This document shows positions 37,260 through 43,948 of a DNA stretch of 64,000 nt, in pieces. The position numbers and the translations under genes were made by a program. The DNA comes from Escherichia coli. GTDB taxonomy: Bacteria > Pseudomonadota > Gammaproteobacteria > Enterobacterales > Enterobacteriaceae. The notes below the pieces were generated by a model that was not told the DNA's origin, did not search any database, and was given only the letters and a program-made list of their open reading frames with translations. The DNA is taken from assembly GCF_013122565.1 (NCBI RefSeq), contig NZ_CP053258.1. One strand, written 5' to 3'. The stretch's first letter is position 1. Every line of letters starts with the position of its first letter.

Positions 37260-37264
37260 TAAAT

Positions 37265-37296
37265 AACCCGGCAGCGTTTCTTCTGCGCTGCCGGGA
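37265..37296 (+). terminator. Hairpin downstream of yhjJ (possible terminator)
   Basis: Stem cccggcagcg / cgctgccggg right after yhjJ stop; weak U-tract. Confidence 0.5.
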
Positions 37297-37457
37297 TTAA
37301 CGGTAATGAATAAGTTGCCGTGATATACCCGCAGAGATTTTTCCAGGCACGGCGGTAGCGTGCAGATAACCATTCATTATTAGAATAAACTTACGGCTGT
37401 GTGAGTTTAATTATTTATTGGCTGAATAAATTGCCAGGAAATAGATGGTGTTAAATA

Positions 37458-37718
37458 ATGGCCTATCATATAGAAATATGGGAAATTGAAGAAACTGATA
37501 AAGTAGTAAAATATGAATTTGGACCTATATCTTCTGACTATTGTAGATCTGATTACGGCGAGTTCGTGATAGATAAAAGAACGGGGGAGATGACATTAGT
37601 CAGACTGGTTAAAAACGATTCGGCTAATAAATTTTATTTGCGAGCGAGTTTTAAGATTCTGACCTGTTGGCGAAAGGGCTATTTGCCAAAAACAAGGAAT
37701 GAGCTTCTTAATAAGTAA
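37458..37718 (+). CDS. Hypothetical small protein (island ORF 1)
   Basis: 86-aa ORF in AT-rich DNA, first of five co-oriented small ORFs; weak SD; no recognised family. Confidence 0.4.
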   Translation: MAYHIEIWEIEETDKVVKYEFGPISSDYCRSDYGEFVIDKRTGEMTLVRLVKNDSANKFYLRASFKILTCWRKGYLPKTRNELLNK

Positions 37719-37731
37719 CTTTGCATAATAA

Positions 37732-38028
37732 GTGAATTTTCCCATTTTTGGGGGGCAGTCGTTGATTCTTACACAGTTTATGTTATGGGTGCAGAAAAAC
37801 ACTGGGCATAATATTAAAAGCAATGCCAATACCTTATCAACCAGCATAGTTATTGATTTTGATAATGATATCCATATTGCCAGATTTACAGGTTGGGATG
37901 ATTTAAGTTGTATGTCAGAAGTTATATGCGTTGAATCGGGTGATTATAAATTAAATCAGCGAAATGAATTCCATACTTATGATTCGCTAAGGATAATATT
38001 TGATGCTTTAATAGAAAGCATACAGTAA
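37732..38028 (+). CDS. Hypothetical small protein (island ORF 2)
   Basis: 98-aa ORF starting 13 nt after ORF 1 stop (GTG in track; internal ATG possible); no recognised family. Confidence 0.35.
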   Translation: MNFPIFGGQSLILTQFMLWVQKNTGHNIKSNANTLSTSIVIDFDNDIHIARFTGWDDLSCMSEVICVESGDYKLNQRNEFHTYDSLRIIFDALIESIQ

Positions 38029-38088
38029 CTTTTTTCTTAGTAAGAAAATAATATACACGAGTATATCTAATTAAATTTAGGATAGGCT

Positions 38089-38568
38089 ATGGATTTTCAC
38101 CTGGATATTTTGCTCCCTACACGTTTCGCTCCAGAGGAACTAGATCTACAAGAGGTTATGGTTCACTGGGGTGGGGAAACCTTTCATCGCGACCCTCCTG
38201 TATACGCCTGGTGTAATCATTATCTCTTGCAGAGATGTAATATACCGATTACTTATGGCCAACCTTTAGATGAGCACATAGACTTTAATGAATACCATAT
38301 TTACAACTTCAATGGTTCTATAGTCGATGAGCTGGAAATGGCTGTGAATAAAGGAAAGGATATTTCAACCGATCCTATAATTAAAATTATTAACAACCTG
38401 ATTAGCAAAAAGTACAGGGGGTGGTTAATCTTGTCATTAGATGATGAAAAAATAGAAGTAATTAAAAATATAAGTTCCCAGTGTTCTTTTCAATCGTTAT
38501 TAGTTGATGGACTAAAATGGGAAAGACCACATGGGGTGGCAATATTATATAATTCACACTTAATTTAA
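38089..38568 (+). CDS. Hypothetical protein (island ORF 3)
   Basis: 159-aa ORF with SD-like aggatagg before ATG; no signal peptide; no recognised family. Confidence 0.5.
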   Translation: MDFHLDILLPTRFAPEELDLQEVMVHWGGETFHRDPPVYAWCNHYLLQRCNIPITYGQPLDEHIDFNEYHIYNFNGSIVDELEMAVNKGKDISTDPIIKIINNLISKKYRGWLILSLDDEKIEVIKNISSQCSFQSLLVDGLKWERPHGVAILYNSHLI

Positions 38569-38585
38569 TTAATGAAAGGAAACAT

Positions 38586-38888
38586 ATGTATCGTGCAAAG
38601 GTTGTTTGGCTTACAGATAAAGAAGGTGGTAGAAGGAGCGCTCCTCCCATCGGTAGATACTATCCCGTCTCCAGATTTCCAGAGGAGCAAACTGACTGGC
38701 AAAATAATGCATGGAGTGTTGTTTTTGAATTGGAAAAACCTAATGTAACCGATGGACGTATCGTTTCAATGGGGGGCGTTCAGTTCCTTTTCGATACTGC
38801 CCCTGCACAATGGATGACTAAGTACGAGGCATTTGAAATCTACGAAGGACCAAGAAAAGTCGCAGATGTATTCTTGATAGAAAATTAA
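38586..38888 (+). CDS. Hypothetical small protein (island ORF 4)
   Basis: 100-aa ORF with good SD (aaaggaaacatATG) 17 nt after ORF 3; less AT-rich than neighbours; no recognised family. Confidence 0.55.
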   Translation: MYRAKVVWLTDKEGGRRSAPPIGRYYPVSRFPEEQTDWQNNAWSVVFELEKPNVTDGRIVSMGGVQFLFDTAPAQWMTKYEAFEIYEGPRKVADVFLIEN

Positions 38889-38948
38889 TTTTATTTATGT
38901 CAGTCAATTTAAGCATATTTGCGACTCAACGCATGTTCAGGAGTGTAA

Positions 38949-39482
38949 ATGCGCTACAAAAAAGTCATGCTATTATTGCTAACAGTCATTCTTTGCTTAA
39001 CCGGTCTTTATTCCTGCAACAAAAATTTTCTCTTACTCTGGGATGCCAATAATATTTATGTCAGTACAAAAAATAATATCGATAAAGACAAGGTGAAAAT
39101 AGAATTCGGCATCAGCGTCAACACGATCAACCGAGAAACGGATGCCGAATTATTTGCTGACAGAGATAAGTATACCGTGCTCTTCGATGGTAGCCTGAAA
39201 AGCAAGATGATAAACGAGTACGGCGAAAATGATTTTTTAATTACCTACGATGACCGCTGCTATTTATCATTTCGTCAATTTAAAACCAATCGTCGTCATC
39301 AACATGACTATTATTTTTACTTCTTTAACAAGGATGGGAATGTCTTCGTCACGGTCGAAATTAAAGGTGAGAACCCGCTTAAATTTACACGTAGTTTAAA
39401 TGATATGCGTCAGCAGTTTTCACCATTCCGTAAGGGTAGCACTTCTCACTCCTGCAAGGTTATTTCTTCAGATCCTTCTTAA
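38949..39482 (+). CDS. Hypothetical exported protein / possible lipoprotein (island ORF 5)
   Basis: 177-aa ORF with SD aggag before ATG; N-terminal signal-like segment MRYKKVMLLLLTVILCLTGLYSC; 3-prime end overlaps the convergent lipoprotein gene. Confidence 0.5.
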   Translation: MRYKKVMLLLLTVILCLTGLYSCNKNFLLLWDANNIYVSTKNNIDKDKVKIEFGISVNTINRETDAELFADRDKYTVLFDGSLKSKMINEYGENDFLITYDDRCYLSFRQFKTNRRHQHDYYFYFFNKDGNVFVTVEIKGENPLKFTRSLNDMRQQFSPFRKGSTSHSCKVISSDPS

Positions 39483-41502
39483 ACACTGGTTCTGGACAAT
39501 CACGACCAAAATGCGCAGCCCAGTCAAAAAATTTACCGTTTTTCACGTAGCGTTGATAAATTAATGCACCGGTTTCTGGATCAAGATATCTGACCCAACT
39601 TGCAGCATGGCATAAGACGGCAGCCCATGCTTGGGTTTTAGGGTGAAGTAAATAGGCAGATTGTTCGGCCCATTCCGCAGCCTGCCAGCGGTAATGCAAA
39701 AAGTGATCATCAGCGGTGGGGATCGCGTGGCGAATACGTTTATTTTCTTTACGACTTATCCATTGATCGTTATTGCTGTATTCAAAGGGGGACGAATATT
39801 GCCCGCTGGTAATGGCATAATCGGGATACATTTCATAAGCCACTAATTCGATACCACTGAAACGCAAAAGCCGCGCAGCTTCGTATTGTGCCTGGGCGCG
39901 TTGCTTATCAGGGATGTTTTTATTTTTCGCTATCGCCATTAAATCAGCCAGTTTTTGTGCGGCCTGGCGATAATTGGGAATATCAAACCAATTGATGGCC
40001 TGCTGATATTGACCATGACGTATTAATCGTCTCCCTAATAGCGCACGTAATTTAACATCCGTTGGAATGATATCTGGCGAAATATAATAACCGTAATTGC
40101 TATTGTTTAAATCTACAGGTTTTAAAGGGTGCTGAGGTGCCGGTACGTTGTTTTCAACAAACGCCTGTAACTCCGGCAAGGTCAAAACGTTTTCTGCAAC
40201 CCAGGCTAAATCGGCCCAATAGAGATCTTTCGCCTGGTAAAACAATGCAGCCGCCTGAAGATAATCATCGCGTTTTAATGCTAAAATCGCCTGCTCACTG
40301 GCAATACGGCAAGATGGGATAGTAACTTTATCTCCATGATAATAAGGGCTTTCCTGGTCCATACTTCCCCACATTTCATCGGTCGGGAACAGCGGGACTG
40401 CGCGAGCATAGTGACGCGTTGCCAGTGGAATATCTCCGGCTCGTAATGCCATTTTTGCTTTTAACCATTCGCTTAATCCACTTTCTGGCGCATCCTCCAA
40501 CAGCGTTTGTGCTAACGAATAATTTCCTGCCCGATACGCCAGTGCTGCCAGTCGATCGCTATAACTAAATCCTTTAACTCTGTGTTGACTTAGCAACTTA
40601 ATTAAACGGTCGCGATGCGTTGGACAGGTATAATCTACAAGGTCTTCAGTACAGGCTTCGCTAACATACCCCCAGTCATGACGAATAAAGAGCTCTGCGA
40701 TTACCAGTTGCTGAACCAGTGGATCATCAATAACCGATTCCAGCAGTGGTAAATTTTTCTCCCTGGTTAGATATAGCGAAATCATTCGTAACGAAGCTTT
40801 CCCGGAGGGCGAACCCTGGGCCGCTTGCCGGGCATAAATTTTTACTGCCGCAGCGACATCACCTTTTTTCAGATAATAATGCCCAATCTGACCGAGACTG
40901 GCGAGAGAGAGCTGCTCAGGATCGGCTGCGCCATTACGGACCTCTTCAATGATTTGCTGATAACGTTGTATGGCCTGCTCAGCAATTTCCTGATTAAAGC
41001 CGCCTTTATTGATTATAAGATCGAGATTGTCGTCAGTGGCATCAAATCCCCCTCTTGCCAGACTATATAGCGCAGCAAGACGCCATTCCCCTTGCTCTGT
41101 TTTCGGTAAGGCTAATAATTGCTGAAAGTAAGGGCTATCGTATTTTCCCTGATGAAAATCCTTAGCTCCTGAATAATAAAGCCACTGCGCATCAGATAAT
41201 GGTTTCTGCAATTTTTGCGCGATTTCCAGTGACCTATTTTGCACAGGAGACTCAGCATCATCATCTGTATTTTCCTGCGTTGCCTCCGCGGGCGTATTTT
41301 CATGCCATATTGGTAAACCAGGATCGCGTTTAGCCAACTGTTGTACTTCAAAGACAAAACTGCCATTTGGCATTTCCAGCAGTGCGCTATTGCGGTCAGT
41401 TAACAGATGGTTAGGAATAAATGGTCCACAGGCATTAACATTGGCGCTAATTAGTGAGAGAAATACAATAACGGAAATCCGCGATCTATTAGGGGATAAC
41501 AT
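39460..41502 (-). CDS. Hypothetical ~680 aa putative lipoprotein with helical-repeat (TPR-like) character
   Basis: Long intact ORF; likely start is ATG at 41502 preceded by strong SD aaggagag, giving signal peptide MLSPNRSRISVIVFLSLISANVNA-C; ORF-track GTG start at 41565 is an alternative; overlaps upstream gene stop; not present at this locus in K-12 as I remember it. Confidence 0.7.
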   Translation of the reverse strand: MLSPNRSRISVIVFLSLISANVNACGPFIPNHLLTDRNSALLEMPNGSFVFEVQQLAKRDPGLPIWHENTPAEATQENTDDDAESPVQNRSLEIAQKLQKPLSDAQWLYYSGAKDFHQGKYDSPYFQQLLALPKTEQGEWRLAALYSLARGGFDATDDNLDLIINKGGFNQEIAEQAIQRYQQIIEEVRNGAADPEQLSLASLGQIGHYYLKKGDVAAAVKIYARQAAQGSPSGKASLRMISLYLTREKNLPLLESVIDDPLVQQLVIAELFIRHDWGYVSEACTEDLVDYTCPTHRDRLIKLLSQHRVKGFSYSDRLAALAYRAGNYSLAQTLLEDAPESGLSEWLKAKMALRAGDIPLATRHYARAVPLFPTDEMWGSMDQESPYYHGDKVTIPSCRIASEQAILALKRDDYLQAAALFYQAKDLYWADLAWVAENVLTLPELQAFVENNVPAPQHPLKPVDLNNSNYGYYISPDIIPTDVKLRALLGRRLIRHGQYQQAINWFDIPNYRQAAQKLADLMAIAKNKNIPDKQRAQAQYEAARLLRFSGIELVAYEMYPDYAITSGQYSSPFEYSNNDQWISRKENKRIRHAIPTADDHFLHYRWQAAEWAEQSAYLLHPKTQAWAAVLCHAASWVRYLDPETGALIYQRYVKNGKFFDWAAHFGRDCPEPVFKKDLKK

Positions 41503-42694
41503 TGAACTCTCCTTGTATTTTTTTATTGCAGCGCGCCCATCCCAGCGGACTGCTTTCTCCGGCACGCAGCTGCCTGTCGCTTATCCTTACAAAATGCAGG
41601 CTGGATGAGCCAGGTTGCACCTGATAGTGGCTTACTCCATCAGCGAATAGACAATCTGCATTGGGCAGAATTATTTGTTTTGGCAACGGCGCATCAATTA
41701 CGCCGCTGTTTTTAAAGGCCAGATCAAAAAGTTGCTTGTCTGTATGTTGAGTAATTATTAACGACCAGCGCGGAGTCAGCGGTTGATGTCGAATCACGGC
41801 TTCCAGTGTTGTCAGTGACCAGGCGCGGCGATCGCCTGCTAACGGTAGCCGAAACCATACCAACCCCTGTAATCCACGCGGTGGTTGCTGTTCTATATAT
41901 TGAATAAACTCGGCAATCGTTTGTGGAGATACACTTAGTTCTTGCATTTCATCAGCAACGTATAGCGGGGATTCGCTTTCGACACGATTATCACTGGTGA
42001 GTGCGGAGCCATAAGCGGGCAATGCGATGAAAAAAGGGTGCGTGGTTTGCCTGGCATATTGCTTTACCCAACGCTGCGCCAGACTGACATCTAACAGGCC
42101 TTTTTCGGGCGACAGCACGTTATGTACCTGGAAAACCGAAGTGTCCGCAATCCGCAATAATCGAGCGAGATGTGGTGATTCAAGCCAGGTGGGCAGGGCG
42201 GTAACGCTGAGTTTTAGATTTGTGGGAAGTGCCTGATGTAACGCACTAAGTAGGGTCTGATATTCCGGCAATTTTGCTGTTGGCGCGTCATAATCAATTT
42301 CCACCCCTGCCAGTGTAATACCTGCGTTTTGCCACTCACGTTGGGTTTGTTGAATATGCTGTATTATTTGCTGGTTATTAAGCCCTGTTAGCTGACCATC
42401 GAGTCGCGCGACCAGCCAGACCGGGCGACCATCCTGCTTAATAAGCGAAGTATTCACCGCAAAATGTCGGATGCCTTCCTGTAGATGAAATTGCATCCCG
42501 AGTATGCGCAGTGTAGAAAAAAGTGAACGGCTTTGTTTTAGAGCGCTGGTATGTTCTGCTGTCCATACACGTTGCCAGATATAGGCTTGCTGATCAAAGC
42601 GAAGCGGCTGTGAGGGGGTAAATAAATTATGCAGCCCATAACCCAGGCAGATCAGAAGAAGTGAAGCTGCAATAATCCTTTTGCAAGATGGCAT
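41489..42694 (-). CDS. Hypothetical secreted protein (~400 aa)
   Basis: 401-aa ORF with N-terminal signal peptide MPSCKRIIAASLLLICLGYGL; lies just downstream of the kdgK terminator on the same strand; stop overlaps next gene start. Confidence 0.7.
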   Translation of the reverse strand: MPSCKRIIAASLLLICLGYGLHNLFTPSQPLRFDQQAYIWQRVWTAEHTSALKQSRSLFSTLRILGMQFHLQEGIRHFAVNTSLIKQDGRPVWLVARLDGQLTGLNNQQIIQHIQQTQREWQNAGITLAGVEIDYDAPTAKLPEYQTLLSALHQALPTNLKLSVTALPTWLESPHLARLLRIADTSVFQVHNVLSPEKGLLDVSLAQRWVKQYARQTTHPFFIALPAYGSALTSDNRVESESPLYVADEMQELSVSPQTIAEFIQYIEQQPPRGLQGLVWFRLPLAGDRRAWSLTTLEAVIRHQPLTPRWSLIITQHTDKQLFDLAFKNSGVIDAPLPKQIILPNADCLFADGVSHYQVQPGSSSLHFVRISDRQLRAGESSPLGWARCNKKIQGEFNVIP

Positions 42695-42747
42695 ATTGTC
42701 ACGGCATAACGATCATCAACAGGGCGGTAGTGTACTGCCGAAACTAT

Positions 42748-42776
42748 TAACGGAGAACGAATATCTACCCGTTCTC
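42748..42776 (-). terminator. Hairpin terminator after kdgK
   Basis: Stem cggagaacg / cgttctccg immediately downstream of kdgK stop on the minus strand. Confidence 0.55.
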
Positions 42777-42788
42777 CGTCAAAAACCA

Positions 42789-43718
42789 TTATGCAGGCAT
42801 TGCTTCACGCGGGATAATCGCGCCGCGATACTGAATAACGGTACTTGCGGTCAGGTGCCCGCGTTTCGCCGCGTCTTCCGCACTGCCGCCCGTCAAACGT
42901 ACCGCCAGATAACCGGCACTGAAAGAGTCGCCAGCTGCGGTGGTATCGATCACTTTTTCTTTCGGCAGTTTCACCGCTGGAACATCCACTAACCCTTCGC
43001 CAGCAATAGACACCAGGCAAGAATCCGCCCCGCGTTTCACCACCACTTCTTTCACGCCCGCGTTATGGGTGCGCGCAATGACGTCTTCCACCGGCTGTTG
43101 ACCCCACAGCGCGTCTTCATCGTCCAGCGTCAGGAAGGCGATATCCGTGCATTCCAGCATTTGTTGGTACACCTGCTGTGTCTCTTCTTTGCTGGCCCAC
43201 AGGCGCGGACGATAGTTATTGTCGAAAATCACTTTTCCGCCGTTGGCGCGGCATTCGCGCAGCAGGGAAAGCAGCTTTTCGCGGCTGGTCGGGCTTAAGA
43301 TCGCCAGGCTAATCCCGCTCAGGTAGAGATAATCGAAATTCGCCAGCTCTGCACAAATCGCCGCAGACTGCTCGCTCTCCAGCCAGAATTTGGCAGCGGC
43401 TTCGTTACGCCAGTAGTAGAACGTACGTTCGCCGGTGCTGTCGGTTTCAATGTAGTAAAGGCCCGGCAGACGGTTTTCCATCCGTTGGGTCAGGGAAGTA
43501 TCAACGTTCTCGCCGTGCCAGGCGTCCAGCATCTGCTGGCTAAAACTGTCCGTTCCCAGCGCCGTTACGTAATGAACGGTTAATGCCGCAGGATCGACCT
43601 GACGGGCGATATAGACGGAAGTGTTCAGGGTATCGCCGCCGAAACCGCGCTTAACGTCCGCGCCTTTCTCGGAAAGCTCAATCATGCATTCGCCAATCAC
43701 GGCAATCTTTTTGGACAT
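42789..43718 (-). CDS. kdgK: 2-dehydro-3-deoxygluconokinase
   Basis: 309 aa from ATG at 43718 (MSKKIAVIGECMIEL...); PfkB-family sugar kinase; ORF-track start 43802 is an extension. Confidence 0.92.
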   Translation of the reverse strand: MSKKIAVIGECMIELSEKGADVKRGFGGDTLNTSVYIARQVDPAALTVHYVTALGTDSFSQQMLDAWHGENVDTSLTQRMENRLPGLYYIETDSTGERTFYYWRNEAAAKFWLESEQSAAICAELANFDYLYLSGISLAILSPTSREKLLSLLRECRANGGKVIFDNNYRPRLWASKEETQQVYQQMLECTDIAFLTLDDEDALWGQQPVEDVIARTHNAGVKEVVVKRGADSCLVSIAGEGLVDVPAVKLPKEKVIDTTAAGDSFSAGYLAVRLTGGSAEDAAKRGHLTASTVIQYRGAIIPREAMPA

Positions 43719-43948
43719 AGTCGTGAACCTGATCTGTAAAAAATTAGCGTTAGTTTGCGCTGTGGTGGTTTGCTGGTCAACCATATTAAAACAGTGTTCC
43801 ATTATTTTTTTGAGCCAGAACGTATTCCTGAAAGATTCCGTTGTAGAGGGGGAAATTTACCCCGGCCAGGCGGTAAAGTTCTGCCCTTGCGCGCCGATAA
43901 TCTTTGTCGAGTCCGGGCAGCATCACTTTTAAACACAGGACATCTTTG

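Follow-up and report, generated by a model that had tools for sequence, protein, structure and literature searches.

Putative glycan-hydrolase gene pair in a variable slot of the Escherichia coli chromosome: a DUF3142 protein with a predicted chitinase-like barrel and an exported helical-repeat partner

A stretch of 64,000 nt of Escherichia coli DNA (contig NZ_CP053258.1 of RefSeq assembly GCF_013122565.1; the whole stretch is called the window below) carries, between yhjJ and kdgK, two overlapping minus-strand genes that are absent from E. coli K-12 and that we call gene 1 and gene 2, or together the module. What could such a pair do, and is it connected with the genes for cellulose and cyclic di-GMP (c-di-GMP) that lie close by? 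On the combined evidence of family, fold and gene arrangement, and by analogy with characterized proteins, we consider it somewhat more probable than otherwise that the two genes specify a periplasmic glycan-hydrolase system made of two proteins, in which a tethered enzyme resembling glycoside hydrolase family 18 (GH18) and a helical partner made alongside it would act on a polymer of the N-acetylglucosamine (GlcNAc) type. The two genes are as follows.

41489..42694, minus strand: gene 1, DUF3142-family protein of 401 aa (open reading frame, ORF; Pfam PF11340; RefSeq; AlphaFold model)
39460..41502, minus strand: gene 2, 680 aa from the ATG at 41502, predicted all-helical partner resembling tetratricopeptide repeat (TPR) proteins, of an unnamed family

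The initial annotation had placed two minus-strand genes at these positions and had preferred the ATG at 41502 as the start of gene 2, whose maximal ORF (39460–41565, minus strand) encodes 701 aa. Both calls agree with the RefSeq annotation of the orthologues in E. coli FDAARGOS_944 and SMS-3-5, which are 401 and 680 aa long and begin gene 2 at the same ATG. RefSeq labels the gene 1 product ‘DUF3142 domain-containing protein’ and the gene 2 product ‘tetratricopeptide repeat protein’ or ‘hypothetical protein’. With dN/dS values of 0.17–0.25, both genes are under purifying selection, weaker than that acting on kdgK and yhjJ (0.02–0.07), and synonymous divergence is mostly higher in the module (dS 0.12–0.32) than in these two flanking genes (0.05–0.10).

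The identity of gene 1 begins with its family. Pfam DUF3142 (PF11340) matches residues 88–285 with an E-value of 7.7e-75, covering positions 1–201 of the 202 in the model, and a profile search with gene 1 returned 2124 clusters at 50 % identity, mostly of about 400 aa; NCBIfam contains no model that matches. The AlphaFold model (mean pLDDT 88.9) consists of an N-terminal helix at residues 3–25, eight beta/alpha units at residues 34–301, which are predicted to form a (beta/alpha)8 barrel of the GH18 type, and a beta-sandwich at residues 310–400. Its structural neighbours include SleL, Cwp19, chitinases and PgaB. The glycoside-hydrolase-like barrel that had been put forward as one possible fold for the module is therefore supported for gene 1, by the model and by these neighbours. 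Three parts of the protein matter for what follows.

41792..42595, minus strand: codons 34–301, predicted eight-stranded beta/alpha barrel, GH18-chitinase-like
42281..42310, minus strand: codons 129–138, AGVEIDYDAP, counterpart of GH18 DGxDxDWEYP at the end of strand 4 (invariant columns; model)
41495..41767, minus strand: codons 310–400, C-terminal beta-sandwich with Cys348 and Cys389 (model; invariant columns)

Many residues are invariant in an alignment of 40 gene 1 sequences reaching down to 44 % identity, including Cys348 and Cys389 in the C-terminal domain and, where strand 4 ends (model strand 128–135), the acidic residues E132, D134 and D136 of the block AGVEIDYDAP. When this block is set against the motif FDGLDLDWEYP of human chitotriosidase, CHIT1 (a sequence verified against PDB 1lg1), Ala129 corresponds to the first Asp, Glu132 to the second, Asp134 to the third and Asp136 to the catalytic Glu, an equivalence drawn from motif alignment and strand position and not from residue-level superposition. 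Gene 1 is GH18-like by fold and a member of DUF3142, and stands outside GH18 by the motif that defines that family. Compared with GH18 proteins (chitinases, endo-beta-N-acetylglucosaminidases and the spore cortex-lytic enzyme SleL), it shares the barrel but not the catalytic Glu or the first Asp, and it is without the alpha+beta insertion domain present in many GH18 chitinases.

A link to a described activity comes from TfeC of Yersinia pseudotuberculosis (PDB 8y6t/9vtv), to which gene 1 is related in structure and, across the motif region, in sequence (E 4.8e-5 with a single sequence, 3.5e-11 with a profile). TfeC aligns with the gene 1 motif as GLQIDFDAG, and so has the same D-x-D. The PDB titles of the TfeC structures name a chitinase, and two papers describe TfeC as an antifungal chitinase of T6SS4, a type VI secretion system (T6SS) (PMC13162877, PMC13008689). 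The two proteins differ in build: TfeC is 262 aa long and lacks the C-terminal beta-sandwich of gene 1.

The substitution of the GH18 catalytic Glu in AGVEIDYD invites the opposite interpretation, that gene 1 is a non-catalytic chitinase-like lectin that, with its partner, senses or anchors a glycan of the envelope or the environment. Proteins with a GH18 fold and no activity do occur among its structural neighbours (narbonin, the xylanase inhibitor XIP-I, tamarind lectin and chitinase-like proteins). However, none of the three acidic residues in the motif varies among the 40 aligned sequences, and TfeC, with the same D-x-D, has been deposited and cited as an active chitinase; we regard a purely binding role as unlikely.

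Gene 2 has no Pfam or NCBIfam family. Its product is modelled as all-helical, with helix-turn-helix repeats that form a TPR-like solenoid, and the structure contains no beta-strand or porin domain. The best TPR profile match is to TPR_16, at E 0.074; among 43 members of the gene 2 family, matches at E≤0.001 were found to TPR_12 in three and to TPR_16 in one, and the gene 2 profile gave only weak consensus-TPR matches against the sequences in the PDB. The TPR-like character first noted for this protein thus persists as a predicted solenoid with weak TPR profile scores. Four cysteines are conserved (C25, C398, C631 and C669). No sequence homology connects gene 2 with NlpI, LpoA, LpoP or CpoB/YbgF, TPR-type proteins that regulate or scaffold peptidoglycan enzymes; the matches to them span about 95–130 residues and are no better than those to eukaryotic TPR proteins. 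None of these proteins is known to be encoded in an overlapping pair with its enzyme.

Where would the two proteins act? Both products carry N-terminal hydrophobic segments, located as follows.

42620..42688, minus strand: codons 3–25 of gene 1, hydrophobic helix, putative signal anchor or signal peptide (model; orthologue lipoboxes)
41428..41502, minus strand: codons 1–25 of gene 2, predicted signal peptide ending ...NVNA, followed by the invariant Cys25 (Gly-Pro) (alignment; -1/-3 statistics)

The N-terminus of gene 1 is KR followed by IIAASLLLICLGYGL. In Escherichia and Serratia it has neither a lipobox nor a clear cleavage site and looks like a signal anchor, in place of the classical signal peptide of the initial annotation; orthologues in Pseudomonas and Klebsiella have lipoboxes of the LLSGC and LATC types. 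In gene 2, Ala24-Cys25-Gly26(-Pro27) is invariant in the alignment and directly follows the hydrophobic N-terminus. Among 94 homologues, the residue at -1 from Cys25 is Ala in 93 and that at -3 is Ser, Ala, Gly or Val in 91, whereas different residues, often large or polar ones (Q/Y/L/H/N/R), occur at -2; a strict lipobox, [LVI][ASTVI][GAS]C, occurs in just one, and the sequence here is V-N-A-C. Because the small residues at -1 and -3 are conserved, -2 is free to vary and the lipobox pattern is so rare, the site is probably of the signal peptidase I type (AXA), and the lipoprotein assignment previously given to gene 2 is probably wrong. Extracytoplasmic placement of both products, as originally predicted, is nevertheless favoured by the rule-based export signals at both N-termini and by the conserved Cys in both. 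Distant homologues of gene 2 in Pseudomonas and Xanthomonadales have an additional C-terminal hydrophobic helix and an Arg-rich tail, and this putative transmembrane helix and tail would fit a protein that is anchored in the inner membrane and has its body in the periplasm.

The two genes regularly occur together. One genome per species was scanned, which gave 314 gene 1 relatives, and 80 loci were kept, ranging from Escherichia to Pseudomonas. A gene 2 homologue lies directly downstream on the same strand in 79 of these loci, and in all three distant metagenomic representatives of gene 1 a gene 2 homologue is next door. The sole exception among the 80 is Hafnia paralvei (locus L010, 10001–11134), where the 10 kb downstream of gene 1 contain no gene for the partner. 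A single ORF of 1176 aa (P0330) joins the two genes and might have served as Rosetta-stone evidence; we discounted it, since its DUF3142 domain lacks its end and the complete partner still has its signal peptide, now internal. A frameshift or read-through in the calling of the overlapping junction is the probable origin.

The junction between the genes is strikingly constant, and two short elements describe it.

41489..41502, minus strand: 14 nt shared by gene 1, up to its stop, and gene 2, from its ATG (start at -14 in 83 of 87 junctions)
41509..41514, minus strand: AAGGAG, putative Shine–Dalgarno (SD) sequence for gene 2, within Gln-Gly-Glu codons of gene 1 (sequence; kept in 72 of 87 junctions)

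The junction sequence is caAGGAGagttcaATG, and the minus strand around it reads ...caAGGAGagttcaATGttatcccctAA. The TAA of gene 1 ends at 41489, giving an overlap of exactly 14 nt with the start of gene 2 at 41502, and the AAGGAG lies 6 nt upstream of that ATG, inside gene 1. The overlapping stop and start with a strong SD, already pointed out in the initial annotation, is conserved far beyond E. coli: of 87 junctions examined, 83 have a start codon at -14, counted from where the upstream stop ends, and 72 have AAGGAG or AGGAG just ahead of the start. GC-rich Pseudomonas is among the latter, and its junctions keep the SD though this requires the rare codons CAA and GGA. Because both the -14 start and the SD are conserved across these junctions, the arrangement, on sequence grounds, is not chance, and it suggests that the two proteins are made together by way of a gene 2 start inside gene 1.

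Nothing else travels with the pair. Apart from the two genes themselves, no gene family keeps a neighbouring position across the 80 loci, and outside Escherichia (77 genomes) the surroundings are unrelated, with panM and rpoH enclosing the pair in Serratia and lysE-lrp on its right in Pseudomonas. In the window the module is flanked by bcsC, hmsP/pdeK, dctA and yhjJ on one side and by kdgK, pdeH and yhjG on the other, and the annotated neighbours in the orthologous RefSeq loci also include yhjE and yhjD. In K-12 the yhjJ–kdgK spacer is 95 nt long and contains no module; homology between the window and K-12 ends at the yhjJ stop (37260) and resumes at the kdgK stop (42789), leaving 5.5 kb of strain-specific sequence between. 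Strain 042 aligns to the window until about 39419–39462 and again from 42746; what 042 lacks is thus a stretch of exactly the module, 3.3 kb bounded at one end by the gene 2 stop codon and at the other by a point 51 nt ahead of gene 1.

39463..42745, minus strand: module as a discrete presence/absence unit relative to E. coli 042-type genomes (alignment gap in 042)

At least 80 % of the module is present in 30 of 5426 complete E. coli genomes. As the neighbours differ between genera and the insertion or deletion in E. coli is exact, the pair is a self-contained and mobile unit.

These observations bear directly on the suggestion, made in the initial annotation, that the module has an envelope or exopolysaccharide role connected with the adjacent cellulose locus, pdeK and pdeH. 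In this reading the pair would be an accessory of the cellulose/c-di-GMP system, processing or exporting exopolysaccharide in the manner of BcsZ/BcsC, PelA/PelB or PgaB/PgaA, and it draws on the position of the module in Escherichia and on a generic architectural resemblance, since PgaB-PgaA, PelA-PelB, BcsZ-BcsC and AlgL/AlgK are all pairings of a periplasmic hydrolase with a TPR protein in synthase-dependent exopolysaccharide systems. However, homologues of bcsC, pdeH and kdgK adjoin the pair in Escherichia only, and the site they flank in E. coli is a variable spacer, empty in K-12. No synthase, glycosyltransferase or outer-membrane barrel accompanies the pair across genera, gene 2 is wholly helical and has no porin domain, and, unlike the known pairings, the module has no further conserved operon partner. 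We therefore find a tie to the cellulose locus unsupported and an exopolysaccharide accessory role very unlikely.

A glycosyltransferase operon does adjoin the pair in part of Pseudomonas, where the left flank is either a lysR-GST-reductase set or an operon of the order glycosyltransferase, glycosyltransferase, methyltransferase, acyltransferase, methyltransferase. Because loci that have this operon and loci that lack it share one right flank, we read its adjacency as positional, and the same fact counts against an exopolysaccharide role. The operon lies directly upstream of the pair in locus L045 (3996–9751) and in about 20 other Pseudomonas loci (for example L028, L036, L052 and L064). It contains two GT4-like genes, two methyltransferase genes and a gene for a predicted 385-aa acyltransferase, a label taken from sequence appearance and position in the gene order, as no NCBIfam family matches; an epimerase/reductase-like gene is oriented divergently to the operon. 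By gene order, as distinct from sequence, it corresponds to pa5455–pa5459/rmd of the common polysaccharide antigen locus of P. aeruginosa (PMC3560663). GGDEF/EAL genes near six Pseudomonas loci were considered as a possible c-di-GMP link and set aside; they are 5–7 kb away and were judged generic.

Our data are consistent with a model in which the gene 1 product is exported by the Sec route and tethered at the outer face of the inner membrane, by a signal anchor in Escherichia and Serratia and by a lipid anchor in Pseudomonas and Klebsiella. Its beta-sandwich would probably bind substrate, and Asp134 and Asp136 would, by analogy with GH18 and TfeC, hydrolyse a beta-linked N-acetylhexosamine polymer through a substrate-assisted mechanism. 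Translation of gene 2 from a start 14 nt inside gene 1 would keep the two proteins in step; the gene 2 product would be exported and cut by signal peptidase I, leaving a helical-repeat solenoid with an N-terminal Cys-Gly-Pro, which would probably bind the enzyme and position or regulate it. Because the structural neighbours of gene 1 are SleL, Cwp19, chitinases and PgaB, we would rank peptidoglycan first among candidate substrates, followed by chito-oligosaccharides and then poly-GlcNAc. In one distant metagenomic relative (locus L086, 5174–8572) only 4 nt separate the end of a Peptidase_M14 gene from the DUF3142 gene that follows, a single case that is possibly a hint toward peptidoglycan peptides.

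A more specific version of this model can be offered tentatively, and we think it rather improbable in full: the pair would act on an envelope glycan of its own cell, with peptidoglycan as the most plausible one, and remodel it through an N-acetylglucosaminidase-type or related activity lacking in the K-12 periplasm, using a GH18-derived Asp-Asp site under the control of a partner with an invariant Cys-Gly-Pro-x-F-P N-terminus, and would represent a widespread, previously unrecognized two-component system.

The homology to TfeC also suggests a target outside the cell. TfeC is reportedly a DUF3142 chitinase delivered by T6SS4 against Candida (Zhu et al., Nat Microbiol 2025, doi 10.1038/s41564-025-02208-z). 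Gene 1 could by extension be an outward weapon or feeding enzyme, released by a type II secretion system (T2SS) or in vesicles against fungal or insect chitin or for harvesting chitin, with gene 2 as its chaperone, secretion helper or self-protection factor. Genera associated with soil, plants and insects (Serratia, the Pseudomonas fluorescens group, Budvicia and Enterobacillus) are over-represented among the relatives of gene 1, and the tight linkage of the two genes recalls effector–immunity pairs. Yet a T6SS effector of the TfeC type has no Sec signal, whereas gene 1 has the N-terminal hydrophobic helix at residues 3–25, a Sec-type N-terminus with a membrane anchor or, in orthologues, a lipobox. 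No T6SS or T2SS genes are found among the annotated neighbours of the pair, and typical immunity proteins are far smaller than the 680-aa partner. We give an outward-directed role the same low probability as that of a lectin.

Several results count against the periplasmic hydrolase system that we favour. The GH18 motif DxxDxDxE with its catalytic Glu is not matched in gene 1, which reads A129-G-V-E132-I-D134-Y-D136; the Pfam scan at E≤10 returned DUF3142 only and no Glyco_hydro_18; and the hhalign comparison of the gene 1 family profile with CHIT1 was not significant (probability 0.4 %), its sole local match pairing ALPAYG with GMPTYG, while that with E. coli ChiA was uninformative. Catalysis is consequently not assured, given the change of the catalytic Glu to Asp and of the first Asp to Ala. 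The H. paralvei locus indicates that the partner is not absolutely required, the signal-peptide and lipobox calls are rule-based, a promoter scan found no sigma-70-like promoter in the 95 nt upstream of gene 1, and a full-text literature search for DUF3142 produced only a table entry in one paper.

The upstream spacer deserves a closer look, since the initial annotation placed a kdgK terminator there.

42747..42782, minus strand: 16-bp hairpin directly after the kdgK stop, 52 nt before the gene 1 ATG (RNA fold)

The hairpin itself is real as a sequence feature, with a perfect 16-bp stem, and the computed folding energy of the 101-nt spacer that separates kdgK from gene 1 is -38.3 kcal/mol (z -4.3); as a terminator it fares less well, being without a U-tract and not listed by the terminator scan. 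The 042-type genomes share the hairpin; K-12, with its unrelated spacer, does not have it. Gene 1 has no obvious SD. A hairpin with no U-tract together with the lack of a sigma-70-like promoter makes read-through from kdgK into gene 1 possible. The mechanically called kdgK ORF (42789–43802, minus strand) starts at an ATG at 43802 and encodes 337 aa; the RefSeq and K-12 form is 309 aa long and starts at 43718.

The remainder of the slot (37261–42788) is variable in its own right. Four states were distinguished: empty in K-12; small ORFs and a lipoprotein-like gene in 042-type genomes; the lipoprotein-like gene and the module in the SMS-3-5 type; and all of these in the window. The first part of the slot has a low GC content (0.32–0.40), contains four small ORFs and a 177-aa lipoprotein-like ORF, and recurs in 170 complete E. 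coli genomes, strain 042 for example; the second part is the module, with a GC content of about 0.45–0.48. The four small ORFs (37458–38888, plus strand) encode 86–159 aa, have a GC content of 0.32–0.38 and show about 94 % identity in many E. coli, 042 included. The 177-aa ORF (38949–39482, plus strand), with the lipoprotein-like N-terminal sequence LTGLYSC, converges on gene 2, the last 23 nt of which it overlaps. The 042 version of this ORF encodes 194 aa and extends into kdgK from the 3′ side; gain or loss of the module therefore changes its C-terminus. None of the five neighbouring small ORFs, and neither module protein, has a match in NCBIfam, PADLOC or PHROGs, and Pfam gave no match for three of the neighbouring ORFs (159 aa, 100 aa and the 177-aa lipoprotein-like one). 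The slot was also considered as a defence island or prophage, and the PADLOC and PHROGs scans do not support this.

DUF3142 is already known through TfeC, a secreted antifungal chitinase and the only characterized member of the family; what is new here is the exported two-component form with an unnamed partner, and the full-text search on DUF3142 found no literature description of the gene pair. Most DUF3142 proteins are built differently from TfeC, being about 400 aa long, with an extra beta-sandwich, and predicted to be exported and membrane-tethered. Should gene 1 prove to be a plain accessory chitinase, the value of this work would be that of routine annotation. If instead the pair forms an active envelope glycosidase complex, it would represent a new kind of periplasmic GlcNAc-polymer hydrolase in Gram-negative envelope biology, and would provide a function for the orphan protein family of gene 2. 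The presence of the pair in a minority of E. coli strains offers natural comparisons between strains with and without it.

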